Shown piece by piece: positions 35,445 through 50,833 of a DNA stretch of 64,000 nucleotides. The notes under the pieces were generated by a model, which saw nothing but the letters and a program-made list of their open reading frames with translations, did not search any database and was not told the origin of the DNA. Each line of letters opens with the position of its first letter. The stretch's first letter is position 1. The stretch covers positions 3,744,001-3,808,000 of the forward strand of contig OZ245742.1 of assembly GCA_965227295.1 (NCBI GenBank), written 5' to 3'. The DNA comes from Leptonemataceae bacterium (lineage in GTDB: Bacteria > Spirochaetota > Leptospiria > Leptospirales > Leptonemataceae). The position numbers were made by a program, and so were the translations under genes.

Positions 35445-37220
35445 TCAGCGCATTTCTTTCGCGCTGGTATACTCTTTGAGATTCTTATGCCACTCTTTAT
35501 CGAAGAAGTGCTTCGGGTCGAGGACTTCTTCGCCGTCCGTCAGCGCTCCGAATTCGGCGGAGCCCACGAGTTTCGCGTACTTGGCCGCCACGCCTCGCGT
35601 GTACTTCGGTTGCGGCGGCTGCCAGTCCCGGGAGCGCGCCATCAATTCTTCGATCGATAAGTGCACTTCCAGCAGGTTCGCGTAGGCGTCGATCGTAATC
35701 ACGTCGCCGGTGCGGATGAGCGCGATGGGGCCGCCCACGGCCGCTTCGGGAGAAACGTGGCCGACCACCATGCCGTAGGTCCCGCCGGAGAAGCGACCGT
35801 CGGTGATGAGGCCGACGCTATCGCCCAGGCCCTTGCCGATCAACGCCGACGTCGGCGAGAGCATTTCGCGCATGCCCGGGCCGCCCTTCGGGCCCTCGTA
35901 ACGAATGACGATGACGTCGCCGGCTTTGATCTCGTCGTTTAAGATGGCGTCCATGCACTCGGTCTCCGAGTCGTAGACCTTCGCCTCGCCGGTGATGGCC
36001 GGATTCTTCACGCCGGAGATCTTTGCCACCGCGCCGCCGGGGGCGATGTTGCCGCGCAGTACGACCAGGTGCCCGCGTTTGTACATCGGCTTGTGAAAGG
36101 GCAGGATGACTTCCTGATTTTCCGGAACGGAATCCGGGATGTGCTCCAGGTTTTCAGCGACGGTCATGCCGGTGACGGTCTGGCAGTCGCCGTGCAGCAG
36201 GCCTTCTTTTAAAAGCATCTTCATGACCCGGGGAATGCCGCCCACGGCGTGGAGATCCACCGCGAGAAAACGGCCGGACGGTTTCATGTCGACGATGTGC
36301 GGCGTGCGTTTGGCGATCGCCTCGAAGTCGTCCAGCTTCAGCTCAATGCCCATGCTGTGCGCGATGGCGAGCAGGTGCAGGACCGCGTTGGTCGAGCCGC
36401 CGGTGGCCATGACGACGGTGATGGCGTTCTCGAAGGCCTTGCGAGTCATGATGTCGGCGGGGCGAATATCTTTGGCGATGAGGTTCACGAGCATGCGGCC
36501 CGCGGCGTGGGTGCTATCGACGATTTCCTGGTCCGGGTTGGCCATGGTCGACGAACCGGGCAGGGCCATGCCGAGGGCCTCGATGGCCGACGACATGGTG
36601 TTCGCCGTATACATGCCGCCGCAGGAACCGGTGCCGGGGCAGGCGTGACGTTCCACGTTTTCGAATTCGTCGCGGTCGATTTTGCCGGCGCTGTAGCCGC
36701 CTACCGCTTCGAAGACCGAGACGACGTTGAGATCCCGCCCGTTCCATTTGCCGGGTTTGATGGTGCCGCCGTAAACAAAGATTGAGGGAATGTTAAGCCG
36801 GGCGATGGCGATCAAACAACCGGGCATGTTCTTATCGCAGCCGCCCAGGGCCAGCAGGCCGTCCATGGACTGGCCGCGGCAGACGGTTTCGATGGAATCG
36901 GCGATGACGTCCCGGGACATGAGCGAGAACTTCATGCCCTCGGTGCCCATGGAGATTCCGTCGGAGATGGTGATGGTTCCGAATGTTTGCGGCATGCCGC
37001 CGCCTTCGCTGATGCCGGTGACCCCTGCCCGGGCCAGGCGATCCAGGCCGGCGTTGCACGGGGTAATGGTGCTGTGTCCGCTGGCCACGGCGACAATGGG
37101 CTTTTGAAAATCGGCGTCGCTGAAGCCCACGGCTCGCAGCATGGCCCGGTTCGGCGCGCGTCGATCGCCCTCGGTGATGTTTTTAGAGTTCCAGTTGTGA
37201 TTGCCGTTTGTTTCCGCCAT
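35445..37220 (-). CDS. ilvD: Dihydroxy-acid dehydratase
   Basis: [33 protein letters not shown]. Confidence 0.96.
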
Positions 37221-37351
37221 GGTGAAGCAGGATCGGGCGGAACGGCACGGCGTCAAGTCACATCTATTTAGAAGTTGACGCTAATATACACGTGTTAAGA
37301 GCAAACGGGGTGTGTAGTTTACGGCACACCCCGCCTCGATGGATCGATCGG

Positions 37352-37720
37352 CTATTCCTCGACGGCCCACGCTTCTCCGGTTACGGAGTAGTGCGATTTC
37401 CCGAAAATAAACGGGATGTACCAGAAGACATACTCCGTGGTTACGTTTTTCAGCAGGTCGACGTCGCCGCCCTCGGTGACGTCGCGCGCGGCTTCATCGA
37501 ACAGAGTTCCCTGGCGCATGTCTCCCAGGGGGATTACGAATATCCAGTACTTCGTTGAGGTGCCGGTGACACTGTCTTCTTTTTTGACCTGCTTCTTACT
37601 GAAATCGATCTTTTGAGAAGAAAGCACGGCGAAGTTGCCGCTGGAAGAGGCGCAGCCGTTCGTGAGAACGATGCCCGCGAATAGAGTGAGGACCAGGAAT
37701 GTTTTTTTGAATCGGTTCAT
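37352..37720 (-). CDS. Small lipoprotein
   Basis: Signal with TNGC lipobox; GGAG upstream. Confidence 0.75.
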   Translation of the reverse strand: MNRFKKTFLVLTLFAGIVLTNGCASSSGNFAVLSSQKIDFSKKQVKKEDSVTGTSTKYWIFVIPLGDMRQGTLFDEAARDVTEGGDVDLLKNVTTEYVFWYIPFIFGKSHYSVTGEAWAVEE

Positions 37721-37725
37721 ATGTA

Positions 37726-38055
37726 TTACTCCTTCACCCAGCATTCGCCGGTCACCGTGTAGGTCTGGACGCCGACGCCCATGAAACCACCCTGGGCGTA
37801 CTCCAGTCGCACATTGCGGAGATACGCGCAGTTGCCCTTGTCCTGGGCTTCTTTTGTAAGCAGGCCGTAGTCTTTGAGATCGTTGGTGGGAATTCCAAAG
37901 ATGGTAATGAAACGGTGCGTTGCGTTAATGGCGCTGCTGGAAAGCTTATAGGTTCCCGCGGGAACGGGCGTGGCGCTTACCGTGCCTACCTGGGGTACCC
38001 GGCAGCCAACGGCGAAGCACAGAGCGATCAGCAGAATCATAAAAAATCTGTACAT
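37726..38055 (-). CDS. Small lipoprotein, paralogue of its neighbour
   Basis: AVGC lipobox; GGAGG RBS; shared YxVTGExW C-terminus. Confidence 0.75.
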   Translation of the reverse strand: MYRFFMILLIALCFAVGCRVPQVGTVSATPVPAGTYKLSSSAINATHRFITIFGIPTNDLKDYGLLTKEAQDKGNCAYLRNVRLEYAQGGFMGVGVQTYTVTGECWVKE

Positions 38056-38166
38056 TCAATATCCTCCATGTTTCAGGACGACATTGAACTGTCCTGCCAT
38101 AGTCAACAAATTTCCTTCCCGGGAGGAGAAATTGATAAGTATTACATAAAATTGAGGAGTTTTTGT

Positions 38167-40113
38167 TTACGTGCGGCCCTGCAACGCCGCCTCGATTTCT
38201 TCCTGGCGGAGCATGCCCAGTTCCACGAGCATCTCACCCAGGCGAATCTCGCGGCCGGTTTCCTGGCGGACGTCGAGAGCGTACTGCAGTTGCTGATCCG
38301 TAATCAAGCCGCGCACGATCAAGAGTTGCCCGATTTCCAGCTGACCGGCCAGCGCGTCGTGGAGTTGCGTCGGCGTGCAATAGCCCAGGCGAATCAATAT
38401 CTCACCGATGCGTTCGCCGATGCGCGACTCCGACTGTTGATTGAGGGCTTCGTTGAGTTGTTCCGGCGAAATGATGCCGCGCCGCGTAAGAATGCGACCG
38501 AGAAAACGATCGAGATCGTTGCTGTGAATCTGTCGCCCGTAGTCCAGGCGGATGATTTGATCGGCGACGTGGTAGTAGGCATCATCGTGACTGATGACGA
38601 TGACGATCTTACCGCGTTCCCGAAGTTCGGGGAGTATCTCTTGATAAAACAATACCCGGAAGTGCGGATCCTGGTCGGCGGCCCACTCGTCGAAGATGTA
38701 AATCGGCCGGTCCTTGAGCAAAGCTTCGAGTAAGAGCAGTCGTTTCTTCTGGCCTTCGGACAGGGCGGTGATCGTGGAATAACGGCCGTTTTCGATGCTA
38801 ACTTTCTGCGTGAGCCTCAGGCGCTCGAGGAGGTCCCGGGCGCGTTGCATGTCGTCGCCGATGATGGGCGGTGCCGGAAATAGAAACGAATCCTGGAACG
38901 TGGCGGCCACAAATTGGCGATACGTCGGAACCAGTTCCGGGGTGATGTCCACCTCGCCGTTGACCCGCACGTTGCCGCCGCTGGCCGCATACAGGCCGGC
39001 CAGAATCTTCGCCAGGGTGGATTTACCGCTGCCGTTGCCGCCGATGAGAAAGTGCACTTCACCGGATCTTAGCGTCAGGTTGATGGGGCCGAGGTCGAAG
39101 TTGCGTCGACGGTGTACGTCGAAGTACGAGTGCGTGAGGTTCTTCAGTTCAATGAGATGCGGCGTTGGTACCTGGCCGCGACGAATGTCCGCCTCGCCGT
39201 CGTCTTCCAGGCCCAGGTGTTCCTGGCGGGACAGGGCGATGTTGGCCTTCGCGTACATGGGAATGTAGGTAAAGATCCATTCAATGGGACCGCGGAGAAA
39301 GAGAATGGCGAGGCACGCGCCGGCCACGACCTCCAGGCTCAGGTTCAGGTCGTCGCGGAGAAAGTACAGCAGGAATCCGATGTACAAAAACAAGAATATG
39401 CGCCCGGCACTGCCTCCGAAGAAGAGGTACGAAAATGCCGCGACGTTGTAACCGCGATACGTCATGGCGGACTTCCGGTAATCCGTTCCGATGTAGGACT
39501 GCGTGAGTTCGGCGTCGAGCTTCAGGTCTTTGATTCCGGTGGTGAGTCCCCGAAAGTGTTCGAAGAGGGTTTCCTGCTCCAGCCGGCTGCGGCGAAAGTA
39601 CTGCAGGGCGACGCGCCGCAGGGATTCGTAAATGAACGTGCCGAGCACCAGAAAGACGACGGCCCCCGCCTGCGCTTCGACGGATAACCACGCGAGGTAC
39701 GCAAACACGCTGATGACCACCGTGGTGTTGATGACCAGTACGGGAAGATTCAGCGTGGCCTGAGAGATGGCGGAGACATCGTCCGTTAACGCGGAGTAGA
39801 GCGGTGAAGCGCCGATGCTTTCCAGTCGTGACAGCGACGACTTCAGGATGCGATCAATCAACTGTTCGCGCACGTGAAAGATGGCGTTTTGGTACAGACG
39901 TACCAGCAGGGCCTGGGAGAAGAACTCGCTGATTGTGAGAACCAGGCAGAAGAGCGCGAAGTACGTGGCGTAGTCGGATTCGGAAAGCGCCGTGACCGTT
40001 TCCTTGATGAGCACCACGAGCATGGCTCCGGAGATACCGCTGATAAGGCCCAGAATAATGGTGATGATCAGAAAGTACGGAGAGTGATTCGAGAGTAAAC
40101 GTAGGACACGCAT
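38167..40113 (-). CDS. PvdE/SyrD/YojI-family ABC exporter fused to C-terminal MshEN-like repeats
   Basis: TM domain, GGNGSGKST, LSEGQKKRL, FDEWAADQDP, then four GxxLxxxG..xxQLxxAL repeats. Confidence 0.9.
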   Translation of the reverse strand: MRVLRLLSNHSPYFLIITIILGLISGISGAMLVVLIKETVTALSESDYATYFALFCLVLTISEFFSQALLVRLYQNAIFHVREQLIDRILKSSLSRLESIGASPLYSALTDDVSAISQATLNLPVLVINTTVVISVFAYLAWLSVEAQAGAVVFLVLGTFIYESLRRVALQYFRRSRLEQETLFEHFRGLTTGIKDLKLDAELTQSYIGTDYRKSAMTYRGYNVAAFSYLFFGGSAGRIFLFLYIGFLLYFLRDDLNLSLEVVAGACLAILFLRGPIEWIFTYIPMYAKANIALSRQEHLGLEDDGEADIRRGQVPTPHLIELKNLTHSYFDVHRRRNFDLGPINLTLRSGEVHFLIGGNGSGKSTLAKILAGLYAASGGNVRVNGEVDITPELVPTYRQFVAATFQDSFLFPAPPIIGDDMQRARDLLERLRLTQKVSIENGRYSTITALSEGQKKRLLLLEALLKDRPIYIFDEWAADQDPHFRVLFYQEILPELRERGKIVIVISHDDAYYHVADQIIRLDYGRQIHSNDLDRFLGRILTRRGIISPEQLNEALNQQSESRIGERIGEILIRLGYCTPTQLHDALAGQLEIGQLLIVRGLITDQQLQYALDVRQETGREIRLGEMLVELGMLRQEEIEAALQGRT

Positions 40114-40296
40114 GGCCGAAGGTTCGCTGTCGCGATGGCACAGCCCGGAAATGCTTGTGATCCCTGAAGATGTTGCAACTAAAAAAAAGAACCAGGCTGC
40201 GAAACGCTGTTAACGAAAATCGCCGCCAGCTTCATCTTGTCTAAGGTTACGGGAGTATTCAGTTACCTGTAAGGGCCTGGTGAGCTAAAGCTAACA

Positions 40297-41229
40297 CTAT
40301 TCGCTTCGATCCCGCATGACCTCGCTTTGCGTTACGTAGTGAAGTCGATCGTTTTCTGGTTCGCCGCCGTTGATCATTACGGCCAGGGGACGTCCGTCCG
40401 GCAACCTTTGACCGGCGACGAAGTCCAGGAAGTGCCCGTCGGTATGGGGTGAGTTTCCGAAGCCCGCGATGACGTAGACGTATTCGGTGCCTTCCCGGGC
40501 TTTCGTCTCGGCGACGACCTGTTGAATGACGGCGGTCTTGCCCGCGGCGTATGGAAACGGTTCGGCGATGCGATCACTCAGCGCGCCGCCGGCATCGAGT
40601 TCCACCTGTACGCCGTGGATCCATTCCTCCGGAATGTCCAGGCTCTTCGCGGCGCCGCGCACAAAGATGTGCGGCGACGCGGAGACGATATGCGTTTCAA
40701 TGTCGTGCTCGCGCAAATGATCGAGCATCGCCACGGACGCGCTGAAGAAGTAGTGGGAGAGGGTTTCTTCGAAGTGGCGCTCCACCAGTTCCTCGAATTC
40801 CCGGGGATGCGTGCCGGCAAAGGCCTTTGGAATAAAACGATACGCCGGTTCATAACCGGCCTGAGCTTCGACGGCAGCGTAGTCCCGTTGGTAGCGGGTG
40901 AAGCCGTCGTCTCCCAGGTAACGTCCCGACAGTCCGGCTTCGATGGCGACCTGCTGTAGGCCGTGGTACACGACCTGGCCGTCTTCTTTCGTGAGCCCGT
41001 CGGTGATGTCGCCGTGGATGATGGTTCCATCGAAGTCCCAGAAGGACAAAAAGACACACTTTTCCGCGGCGCAGGGATGCTCCCCGTTGCGCGCGAACTT
41101 CTGTACGAAGAGGCGGGTTTGTTCGATGATATCCACTACTTCTTTGGCGTGCGGCTCAGAGGTCGGCAGCGGACTGCACGCTAACATACAGAGAAAAGAT
41201 CCTAACGTAAGCCCACGGATGATGCGCAT
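40297..41229 (-). CDS. HAD-superfamily hydrolase lipoprotein
   Basis: MLAC lipobox; WDFDGT, VSAS, GK, GNS..D. Confidence 0.82.
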   Translation of the reverse strand: MRIIRGLTLGSFLCMLACSPLPTSEPHAKEVVDIIEQTRLFVQKFARNGEHPCAAEKCVFLSFWDFDGTIIHGDITDGLTKEDGQVVYHGLQQVAIEAGLSGRYLGDDGFTRYQRDYAAVEAQAGYEPAYRFIPKAFAGTHPREFEELVERHFEETLSHYFFSASVAMLDHLREHDIETHIVSASPHIFVRGAAKSLDIPEEWIHGVQVELDAGGALSDRIAEPFPYAAGKTAVIQQVVAETKAREGTEYVYVIAGFGNSPHTDGHFLDFVAGQRLPDGRPLAVMINGGEPENDRLHYVTQSEVMRDRSE

Positions 41230-48676: not shown

Positions 48677-50833
48677 ATGGCTCAGCTCGGGGAAATTCTG
48701 GTTCGTCACGGTGTCATTAGCCGGGACCAATTGATCGAAGCGTTGTACACGCAGCGGCGCATGAATGCGAACGCGTCTTTGTTGTCCGCGGCCGAGAAAT
48801 ACCTGGAAGCCGCCGAGCTCGAACGCATCATCGATCACCAACTCCACCGGGGACTAACTTTCGAAGAAGCAATATTAGATCTTGACGTGCTTTCGAAAAA
48901 ACGCGTATCGGAACTGCACCGGGAGCGCAAAGAGTTCCGCGTGCCGCTCGGAGAAATCCTGCGCCGCCGCGGCTTCCTTGATGTCGCGGAGCTGAACCGC
49001 TGGATCGAACGCTACGAAAACGAACGGGATGCCCGGGAAAATCCGGAACACCTGGCCGCGATGCTCCGCAGCATCGAAATCTTTGCAAAACTGGATGAAG
49101 CGTGCCGCCTGGAATTGTCTCAGAACGCCCACTGGAAATACTACGAGGCCGGGGATCTCATCTATGAAGAAGGCGATCCCGGCGATGCGATCTACGTTGT
49201 GGAATACGGCCTGGTCCGACTGACGACCCACGGCGCCCTGCACGACTCTCTGGAACTCGGCAGCGCGCGTTCCGGCGATCACTTCGGTTTGCCGGGGGCC
49301 CTGAGCGGACAGGATCGACTCGAACATGCGCAGGCACTCGTAAAGACCCGCTGCATTCGCATTATGGCGGAGGACCTGCAGGCCGTTCTCAGGCAACAAC
49401 CCGAGGCGGCCGTGAGTGCGGCGGAACTGCTCGGCCGGGATGTGCGTCATTACTTCGGCGGCATTCAGTCGAACGACATCCTCGTCGATACGAACGTCTA
49501 CACCCTCGTTTACGATAGTGTGCCGGACCACGACATTCTCAACGCACTCTTACAAGAACTTCGAGTGCAGCTTGAGGGTTCGGTGCAATTGTTGCATAAT
49601 CATCCCGACCTGGAACTCCCCTATTTCTCGGCCGAAGCCGGCTACGCCATGTTTGTTCCCCGTCTTTCTACGGCGGCGCACTTTCCACAGATCGTTCGTT
49701 GGATTCACGAGGAAAGCCGGCACATCGATCACCTGGTGTTTTTGATTTTTCCGGCGCAGTTCACACATACGGCGGAGGCCGCGGAACTGCTGACATTGCT
49801 GACAGCGAACAGCCGACGTACGCTGACGCTCACGAATTCAGTCAGGCCGTACTTCAACAACCTGCGCGGAGAACGTGATCGCGTGCAACTCCTGGTCGGC
49901 GATGACGTAGAACGTGATCGGGCGACCTATCTGGAATTATTGCACGTTTGTCCGGAAAGTCTCGCGCATATTAGCTTTAATAAAAAGTATCTTAACGAAA
50001 CAGCCCGGCGAACCGTCTCCGGATTCCTGGGCCGGGAGATCGCCCTCGTGCTCGGCGGCGGCGGCGCCAAAGGGGCCGCGCACATCGGTGTCCTCGAAGT
50101 ACTGGAGCGCGAAGGCATTGCGGTCGATCTGGGACTCGGCAGTAGTTCCGGTTGCGTCGTGGGCAGTCTCTGGGCGTACGGTTACGAACTCGACGAACTT
50201 CGCGAACGTTATGTGAAGGACCTGGGCAACCGCAGGGTTCGCTTTCCGGATTGGACTCTGCCTTTGCGCGGATCTCTGGCAAAAGGAGACGTGGGTCGCA
50301 AGTTTCTCTTAAAGCACATCGGGGAGATGTTTACGTTCGAGGGGCGGCGGCCGTTTCTGCCGGTATCCGTGGATCTCAAGCAGGGCGGTGATGTCGTTGT
50401 GCGCGGTTGTGAAATGTGGCGAGCCGCCTTCGCCTCCCAGGCCATTCCCGGACTACTACCCCTGGTCGAACACGACGGCATGATTCTCTCGGACGGTGCT
50501 CTGGGAAACAACGTGCCGTCGTCCCAGGCGCGTCGTTTCGGAGCGGACTTTGTAATCAGCGTAAACATCAGTCCCACACCCGCCGCGACTTCATTCAATC
50601 CGAAGTCCGTCGGCTCAAACATGTTGCGCGCCGTAGAAGTCATGATGCACCAGTCCACGTCCCGGCATCAGGATTTCACGGACGTCGAGATTCGGCCGCG
50701 GGTCTTCGAATACGGTATGTTCGATTTCGAGAAAACGGAGCTATTCATGGAACTCGGCCGGCGCGCCGCGGAAGAAAAGCTGCCCGAGCTGCGATTGCTT
50801 CTGGACCGACGTAAGACGATCACGCAACATTAA
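48677..50833 (+). CDS. Patatin-like phospholipase with N-terminal MshEN-like repeats and cNMP-binding domain
   Basis: LGEILVRHGVISRDQLIEALYTQ; IYEEGDPGDAIYVV..G; GGGGAKG, GSSSG, DGA. Confidence 0.88.
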   Translation: MAQLGEILVRHGVISRDQLIEALYTQRRMNANASLLSAAEKYLEAAELERIIDHQLHRGLTFEEAILDLDVLSKKRVSELHRERKEFRVPLGEILRRRGFLDVAELNRWIERYENERDARENPEHLAAMLRSIEIFAKLDEACRLELSQNAHWKYYEAGDLIYEEGDPGDAIYVVEYGLVRLTTHGALHDSLELGSARSGDHFGLPGALSGQDRLEHAQALVKTRCIRIMAEDLQAVLRQQPEAAVSAAELLGRDVRHYFGGIQSNDILVDTNVYTLVYDSVPDHDILNALLQELRVQLEGSVQLLHNHPDLELPYFSAEAGYAMFVPRLSTAAHFPQIVRWIHEESRHIDHLVFLIFPAQFTHTAEAAELLTLLTANSRRTLTLTNSVRPYFNNLRGERDRVQLLVGDDVERDRATYLELLHVCPESLAHISFNKKYLNETARRTVSGFLGREIALVLGGGGAKGAAHIGVLEVLEREGIAVDLGLGSSSGCVVGSLWAYGYELDELRERYVKDLGNRRVRFPDWTLPLRGSLAKGDVGRKFLLKHIGEMFTFEGRRPFLPVSVDLKQGGDVVVRGCEMWRAAFASQAIPGLLPLVEHDGMILSDGALGNNVPSSQARRFGADFVISVNISPTPAATSFNPKSVGSNMLRAVEVMMHQSTSRHQDFTDVEIRPRVFEYGMFDFEKTELFMELGRRAAEEKLPELRLLLDRRKTITQH

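Follow-up and report, generated by a model that had tools for sequence, protein, structure and literature searches.

The window analysed here is a stretch of 64,000 nucleotides from a Leptonemataceae bacterium (GenBank assembly GCA_965227295.1, contig OZ245742.1, positions 3,744,001 to 3,808,000 of the forward strand). Its minus strand carries a gene for a half-size ATP-binding cassette (ABC) exporter of 648 amino acids, in which the ATPase domain is followed by a C-terminal tail of two tandem MshEN_N-type modules, related to the cyclic di-GMP (c-di-GMP)-binding region of the protein MshE. A first-pass annotation of the window had noticed an MshEN tail on an ABC exporter, and this observation is confirmed. 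Its interpretation of the gene as a c-di-GMP-gated exporter is partly supported: the identity of the domains was established, as were the reality and the rarity of the fusion. In coordinates of the window, the gene is organised as follows.

38167..40113, minus strand: whole gene, 648-amino acid half-size ABC exporter with a tandem MshEN_N tail (open reading frame (ORF) translation and profile matches; stop codon at 38167-38169)
39214..40113, minus strand: transmembrane domain, residues ~1-300, with the long helices of the exporter fold (PF00664 ABC_membrane, 30.4 bits)
38530..39156, minus strand: nucleotide-binding domain, residues ~320-528 (PF00005 ABC_tran, 86.1 bits, residues 343-478)
38341..38502, minus strand: MshEN_N module A, residues 538-591 (NF053729; motif I starts FLG, a 7-residue spacer follows, motif II starts RIG)
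38176..38337, minus strand (38179-38334 in the genome scan): MshEN_N module B, residues 593-646 (NF053729; motif I starts EIG, a 7-residue spacer follows, motif II starts RLG)

The tail was identified with NF053729, the NCBIfam model of MshE-related cyclic di-GMP-binding sequences (53 positions, cut-off 38 bits). Module A alone scored 66.0 bits (E = 1.9e-18, residues ~538-591) and module B alone 48.0 bits (E = 8e-13, residues ~593-646), and the two modules together reached 106 bits. A scan of the whole genome with the same model pointed to the same two places, with 66.6 and 46.2 bits. The four 24-residue motif strings quoted in the first-pass annotation are all found in the C-terminus of the 648-amino acid ORF, in the order claimed, and the span given for them there (38167-38515) corresponds to residues ~533-648 and the stop codon. 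The description of the tail as two MshEN domains holds for the two modules, which are genuine MshEN_N-type units, and fails for the MshEN_C subdomain, which is absent. The Pfam model T2SSE_N (PF05157) did not match the tail or its halves, even at E-values of up to 10, nor the whole protein, and the protein ends two residues beyond module B. The tail consists of two MshEN_N helical subdomains without MshEN_C.

Comparison with proteins of solved structure led to the same family. A phmmer search of PDB sequences aligned module A to residues 4-73 of Vibrio cholerae MshE (5htl, E = 1.8e-8) and the tail also to the GSPII domains of Thermus thermophilus PilF, the best match of module B being the GSPII-C module (PilF residues 302-357). 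The NfrB models NF008411 and NF012033 also matched the tail region, weakly. Eight helices were predicted both in a model of the tail only, with a predicted local distance difference test (pLDDT) value of 82.5, and in the model of the full protein, where the tail has a pLDDT of 61-91 per 10-residue block. These helices span residues 533-544, 550-562, 569-575 and 581-591 in module A and residues 594-600, 606-619, 625-631 and 637-645 in module B. The 12 best PDB matches of the tail model in Foldseek were all chains of MshE (5htl, c-di-GMP-bound) or of PilF GSPII, with a root-mean-square deviation of 1.0-2.0 Å over 53-55 columns and 33-47% identity. By profile and sequence comparison, the assignment of the tail to the MshEN_N type is far beyond chance.

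The remainder of the protein matches TIGR01194, the subfamily model of cyclic peptide export ABC transporters (cut-off 286.2 bits), with 367.3 bits, residues 3-528 being aligned to profile positions 8-547 of 554. The claim of a cyclic-peptide-type exporter is borne out by this score. In the 5.94-Mb genome, only one of the 32 matches to TIGR01194 exceeds the cut-off, and it is this gene. The YojI equivalog NF007813 was not reached (356.9 bits, with 604 required). The textbook members of the subfamily in cyclic-peptide export are SyrD, PvdE and YojI, and association with gene clusters for non-ribosomal peptide synthetases (NRPS) or siderophores is typical of the named members. No such association is present among the neighbours of the gene, and the sole condensation-domain match of the genome is ~1.1 Mb off, in agreement with the earlier remark that no NRPS is nearby. 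Association with NRPS is not a defining feature of TIGR01194, and the family membership therefore stands. The window protein shares with the TIGR01194 exporters the full-length match over the subfamily cut-off and the exporter fold; it differs from them by the MshEN tail of ~110 residues, by a score below that of the YojI equivalog and by the lack of an adjoining NRPS.

The motifs of the ATPase are intact in the translation: Walker A (GGNGSGKST), the signature (LSEGQ), Walker B with the catalytic Glu (FDEW) and the His of the H-loop. In a 66-row alignment, the columns G358-K364, D475, E476 and H509 are invariant. An AlphaFold2 model obtained with this alignment has a mean pLDDT of 88.0 and features the long helices of an exporter between residues 2 and 299, a canonical ATPase domain and the eight tail helices in a 4+4 arrangement. 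The whole model matched MsbA, PCAT1, TM287/288 and Sav1866 in Foldseek, with TM-scores normalised to the target of 0.73-0.80, so that the exporter fold is confirmed at the level of the predicted structure. No close subfamily member with a solved structure was found, the best PDB sequence match being one half of ABCB1 (E = 1e-23).

The fusion of the exporter with the tail is supported at the level of the assembly. Contigs assembled from two public sequencing runs, X1 and X2, cover positions 37900-40300 with no differences, and the contigs of both runs cross the junction between ATPase and tail. One contig of 25.6 kb spans the whole of this region, and in the second run the junction is bridged by a 773-base contig (38290-39062). 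Both runs come from one study, which is possibly the source of the assembly analysed here. The same build is also encoded by independent, divergent proteins. Protein P0002 (662 amino acids, 39% identical) and protein P0121 (649 amino acids, 38% identical, representing a four-member cluster) possess both modules, and each of them matches TIGR01194 and NF053729 over the cut-offs; P0224 (611 amino acids, 36% identical) has one module only. An assembly artefact, which the first-pass annotation had named as a possible explanation, is ruled out by the contigs crossing the junction together with these proteins.

In all four divergent clusters, a short linker connects the module to the ATPase, and the register is the same. 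Identity among the four fused proteins is 37-42% in the tail and 36-39% over the whole protein; by this measure, the tail and the remainder of the protein are equally conserved. In a maximum-likelihood tree built from the ABC part only (66 rows), the three clusters with two modules group together with a support of 84 in the Shimodaira–Hasegawa-like approximate likelihood ratio test (SH-aLRT), and P0001 and P0121 are joined at 99. P0224 is found elsewhere in this tree, in a position without resolved placement. A single origin of all fused proteins, P0224 included, would still be compatible with this tree. The fusion is real and conserved.

It is also very rare. A HMMER search over 1.84 billion representatives yielded only four proteins covering the tail among the best 150 (P0001, P0002, P0121 and P0224); the other 146 cease to match at query residue 545 or before, which agrees with the earlier statement that exporters of this type normally end at the ATPase. 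Members of the TIGR01194 type with a length of 530-580 amino acids number in the hundreds and are 38-42% identical to the window protein. A profile built from the four tails was compared with a collection of 5.8 billion clusters, limited to proteins of 208-2000 amino acids, and the same four proteins were the only ones among the best 120 matches to carry ABC_tran. The other matches among these 120 were PilB/GspE ATPases, CheA kinases, NfrB-like glycosyltransferases, Ser/Thr kinases with TPR repeats, a C39-peptidase protein and proteins of pure MshEN repeats. All four fused clusters come from uncultured organisms.

Closer to the source organism, no homologue was found at E ≤ 1e-30 in 40 relatives (2 of the same genus, 22 of the same family and 16 of the same order), and none at E ≤ 1e-40 in 400 other genomes sampled from the phylum, with three candidates scored per genome. 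When the tail (residues 531-648) was used by itself in a word-index search, nothing but the query was returned, which reflects the sensitivity limit of the method and is not evidence. Scanning of genome contigs with patterns from the end of the ATPase gave 79 loci, and at the three loci with the longest matches, which were checked, the ORFs end at the ATPase or soon after it. A second pattern gave 80 loci in genome contigs, one of which had a tblastn match to the ABC part, an unrelated ATPase on the opposite strand at a distance of ~5.7 kb from the MshEN match; with the same pattern in metagenome contigs, none of the 80 loci had such a match. No fused relative was identified at the loci checked in these three scans.

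Several other architectures were encountered in these searches. Among the TIGR01194-like relatives, C-terminal enzymes were observed in the form of an M28 peptidase, a class I/II aminotransferase and cytochrome c, and an N-terminal FAD monooxygenase was also observed (proteins P0133, P0170, P0180 and P0155). Forms of ~1100 amino acids with two exporter-matched stretches are common among the best matches. Among the tail matches, P0277 (506 amino acids) contains several MshEN-type motifs followed by a C39-type peptidase domain.

The predicted ligand site can be followed residue by residue. According to the description of MshE by Wang et al. 2016, two motifs of 24 residues each hold one half of the c-di-GMP molecule, mainly through Leu triads, backbone amides of Gly and a Gln. 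Module A keeps the equivalents of MshE L10, G11, G18, L25, L29, Q32, R38, G40, G47, L54, L58 and Q61, and has Ile for L39. Among the residues named as key in that paper, the only other change is Phe for R9, and as Ile is a conservative replacement it is the one key-residue change counted for module A. Gly is found at motif positions 3 and 10 of all four motifs (MshE G11, G18, G40 and G47). The two Leu triads (L10/L54/L58 and L25/L29/L39) read L,L,L and L,L,I in module A and I,I,L and L,L,L in module B, the replacements being conservative. Position 1 is occupied by F and R in module A and by E and R in module B, and position 24 by Q and Q in module A and by R and R in module B.

A number of features weigh against a c-di-GMP-responsive tail. 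None of the fused proteins has the consensus Arg of motif I in either module (module A: F/A/S/T; module B: E/G/G), and these residues fall outside even the relaxed position-1 pattern [RKPN] given in Wang et al. 2016. In module B, both motifs are closed by Arg and not by Gln. The spacers are 7 residues long in both modules and not 5 as in MshE (Wang et al. 2016), and the MshEN_C subdomain, the Asp108 of which also contacts the ligand in MshE as described in the same paper, is absent. In P0002 and P0224, the turn glycine of motif I (position 10) is replaced by Asn, Lys or His; replacement of that glycine by Leu or Ile in MshE considerably reduced binding (Wang et al. 2016). Owing to the shortness of the unit, the tail matches in Foldseek have weak E-values (0.06-1.6). 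The window is devoid of GGDEF genes, and the closest one matched is ~225 kb away. Finally, since the family is tiny, the fusion may be a short-lived evolutionary experiment.

Part of these features would be expected if the tail were a degenerate MshEN-like module that does not bind c-di-GMP and acts as a structural, dimerising or partner-docking extension of the ATPase domain, similar to the N-terminal domain of XpsE/GspE in type II secretion. The missing Arg in every fused protein and the score of only 48 bits for module B, with Arg for both Gln, are in line with this explanation. Non-binding look-alikes are documented in XpsE (Wang et al. 2016) and in the GSPII-A domain of PilF (PMC11731258), and C-terminal extensions matter for the activity of ABC exporters in general, as reported for BmrA (PMC11774805). 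On the other hand, module A retains the four glycines, both Leu triads with one Leu replaced by Ile, and both Gln, and both modules are over the curated cut-off of a model made for the c-di-GMP-binding motif. XpsE lost its binding through eight changes at key positions according to Wang et al. 2016, compared to one in module A.

Deviations like those of the tail are tolerated in proven binders and in variants of MshE. Changes of R9 or Q32 in MshE altered the affinity less than 5-fold, and the isolated MshEN_N (residues 1-62) bound with a dissociation constant of 0.35 µM without MshEN_C; tandem MshEN_N arrangements are also mentioned in this source (Wang et al. 2016). GSPII-B of PilF binds at 6 nM despite Lys and Leu replacing both position-1 Arg, and for GSPII-C, which has Pro at the first position of motif II, the value is ~460 nM (PMC11731258). 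In our alignment, the spacer of GSPII-C is 7 residues long, the same as in the tail. A complex prediction with two tail copies and four c-di-GMP molecules scored 0.11 against a mark of 0.42 and was not used as evidence. Judging from the residues kept, binding of c-di-GMP by at least module A is probable, and a tail without binding is unlikely, though it deserves to be kept in mind.

The modules could also bind another nucleotide messenger, such as 3'3'-cyclic GMP-AMP (cGAMP), with the pump answering to that signal. V. cholerae MshEN does bind cGAMP, more weakly (Wang et al. 2016), and the changed residues at positions 1 and 24 could shift the specificity. In the same work, however, the O6 and N7 atoms of guanine are read through backbone amides at conserved Gly, with c-di-AMP excluded, and none of the four motifs of the tail has lost this Gly. 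Enzymes of c-di-GMP are moreover abundant in the genome, a comparison in which cGAMP synthases were not searched for. A different messenger is accordingly regarded as quite improbable.

To judge from its gene content, the genome uses the c-di-GMP messenger: 15 GGDEF matches and 13 PilZ matches, 12 of them over the cut-off, were found, together with one further full MshEN match in an open frame of 576 codons.

Of the systems already studied, the closest to the tail are the MshEN_N of MshE (5htl) and PilF's domains GSPII-B and GSPII-C (8pdk and others). They share with it the two 24-residue motifs, the four-helix bundle and the key Gly and Leu residues, and the tail model superposes on them at 1.0 Å over 55 columns. 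In MshE and PilF, these modules are N-terminal on a secretion ATPase of the PilB/GspE type, whereas here they are C-terminal on an ABC exporter. The window protein also differs by having two tandem N-subdomains without MshEN_C, no Arg in motif I, spacers of 7 residues and Arg for Gln in module B. NfrB of Escherichia coli is a c-di-GMP-activated glycosyltransferase that carries an MshEN domain C-terminally and works with DgcJ (PMC10211494). It resembles the window protein as an inner-membrane, export-linked enzyme with MshEN at the C-terminus and with allosteric control by c-di-GMP, which in the window protein would be the presumed mode. The machine attached in NfrB is a glycosyltransferase with one module; here it is an ABC ATPase/permease with two modules and with no diguanylate cyclase nearby.

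Ligand-binding regulatory domains at the C-terminus are also carried by the ABC ATPases MalK, MetN, ModC and OpuCA, the last with CBS domains that bind c-di-AMP. These offer a comparison of working principle only: a domain behind the ATPase, once occupied, alters ATPase closure, and the tail could act in a comparable way. The four are importers with unrelated regulatory folds, and their ligands are substrates or c-di-AMP; the window protein, in contrast, has an exporter fold, a four-helix bundle and c-di-GMP as its presumed ligand.

Half-transporters of the exporter fold work as homodimers in which closure of the ATPase domains on ATP is required. The window protein would be such a homodimeric half-transporter, within the cyclic-peptide/YojI-type subfamily. 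A linker of ~9 residues follows each ATPase domain and leads into the two MshEN_N four-helix bundles, which are separated by a single residue. One c-di-GMP is expected per bundle; with two bundles per chain, the homodimer would have up to four sites, placed directly under the ATPase dimer. Occupancy by c-di-GMP would shift the tails relative to the ATPase domains and alter the ease of ATP-driven closure, and in consequence the export of the substrate would follow the c-di-GMP level of the cell post-translationally. Allosteric gating of the exporter ATPase by c-di-GMP, as suggested by the sequence, is the reading we favour with moderate confidence. Binding of the messenger, its effect on transport and a peptide as the substrate are what we infer in it. 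By analogy, activation at high c-di-GMP is slightly favoured over inhibition, as c-di-GMP turns on both MshE and NfrB, two characterised MshEN effectors.

Alternatively, the protein may bind c-di-GMP without gating its own transport; the tail could serve to recruit or position a different protein, or it could buffer the messenger at the membrane. Proteins built solely of many MshEN-type repeats exist, as in P0268 (455 amino acids), which apparently contains many such motifs in a row, which means that no attached enzyme is needed for the module to act; up to four sites per dimer would also form a sizeable sink if the protein were abundant. Against this stand the short linker and the same register of the module and ATPase in the four divergent clusters, and the fact that in the characterised fusions MshE, PilB and NfrB the module controls the attached enzyme (Wang et al. 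2016; PMC10211494). Such a role is considered improbable. It is still less likely, and should be seen as an outside chance, that the cargo is c-di-GMP itself, with the MshEN sites serving as a gauge of the substrate and export being switched on only at high messenger. The pump would then be a self-regulating relief valve, a kind of transporter not known for c-di-GMP.

The surroundings of the gene were also analysed. On the minus strand, the order is NAD synthase, a HAD-family lipoprotein, a gap of 183 bp, the exporter, a gap of 111 bp, two small lipoproteins and ilvD. The two lipoprotein genes are adjacent:

37352..38055, minus strand: two small lipoprotein genes, 109 and ~122 amino acids, with a lipobox Cys in each

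The second of them is weakly similar to DUF6567 (17.2 bits, below the cut-off). In both genomes of the same genus (G001 and G002), the flanks are syntenic and 66-77% identical at the DNA level. Between ilvD and the HAD-family gene, these two genomes have a slot of ~1.9 kb, compared to ~3.1 kb here (window ~37260-40300); in G001 (G001:C2:5832800-5835900) it is occupied by an unrelated ORF, at most 590 amino acids long. The lipoprotein pair recurs side by side in G002 (G002:C18:671922-672618, 44-46% identity) with no ABC gene there, and was not found in the others of the 40 relatives. An operon of the exporter and the two downstream lipoproteins was considered and ruled out by this recurrence. 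Given the variable slot and the recurrence of the pair elsewhere, the exporter looks like a single-gene insertion, and it is probably a single-gene unit acquired horizontally. A promoter scan of positions 37200-40400 revealed no sigma-70-like site; terminator-like sites in the same interval numbered five, with 2.9 expected, and none was usefully placed. The neighbouring genes give no hint of the substrate.

The only condensation-domain match of the genome (G000:C1:4886164-4887399) lies in a frame of 3247 codons. Two PilZ matches over the cut-off are located in the same frame (G000:C1:4884031-4887399, minus strand). The pairing of PilZ and condensation domains is also present in G001 (frame of 3268 codons) and G002 (frame of 2870 codons). 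There is a weak suggestion that the pump was recruited to export the product of this PilZ-bearing NRPS-type megasynthase, which would place synthesis and export under the same messenger. Against such a link, the PilZ-bearing megasynthase is retained in G001 and G002, which lack the pump, and condensation domains occur in 12 of the 40 relatives and the pump in none.

Elsewhere in the window, a gene at 48677..50833 on the plus strand encodes a protein of 718 amino acids in which a cNMP-binding domain (56.6 bits) is combined with a domain of the patatin-like phospholipase type (85.6 bits). A single MshEN-type half motif makes up its first ~30 residues (NF053729, 35.1 bits, just below the cut-off of 38), and a second look-alike motif follows ~60 residues further on. 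By sequence, this protein may be a lipase reading two nucleotide signals.

The searched literature gave no account of an ABC exporter fused to MshEN, in agreement with the first-pass remark that the architecture was not known as described. The MshEN fusions presented in Wang et al. 2016 involve ATPase, glycosyltransferase, REC, HD-GYP, CheA, CheX, cyclase and Ser/Thr kinase domains. Neither the main text nor the supplementary text of that paper contains the word "transporter"; the architecture drawings in it are images and not searchable as text. In the passages checked of PMC12448109 and PMC10211494, the mentions of ABC concern a ComFB fusion and the title of a reference, with no ABC–MshEN fusion among them. 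A census of Leptospira interrogans lists one MshEN protein, GspE, and makes no mention of ABC or a transporter. Among the titles listed on MshEN and transporters, none is about such a fusion. The ABC exporter–MshEN fusion is apparently undescribed, both of its parts and the logic of their joining being already known.

The weight of the finding is limited, because the fusion is very rare, with four protein clusters only, all from uncultured organisms. Its meaning lies in the range of processes that c-di-GMP controls, among which are pilus and type II secretion ATPases, polysaccharide synthases and transcription. No ABC exporter with a c-di-GMP receptor domain on its own ATPase was found in the literature searched. 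If the tail both binds and gates, the protein would represent a minimal system, made of one polypeptide, for second-messenger control of the closure of an ABC exporter. The outputs of c-di-GMP would then be widened to the export of small molecules or peptides, and the tail would constitute a portable c-di-GMP switch module of ~110 residues.

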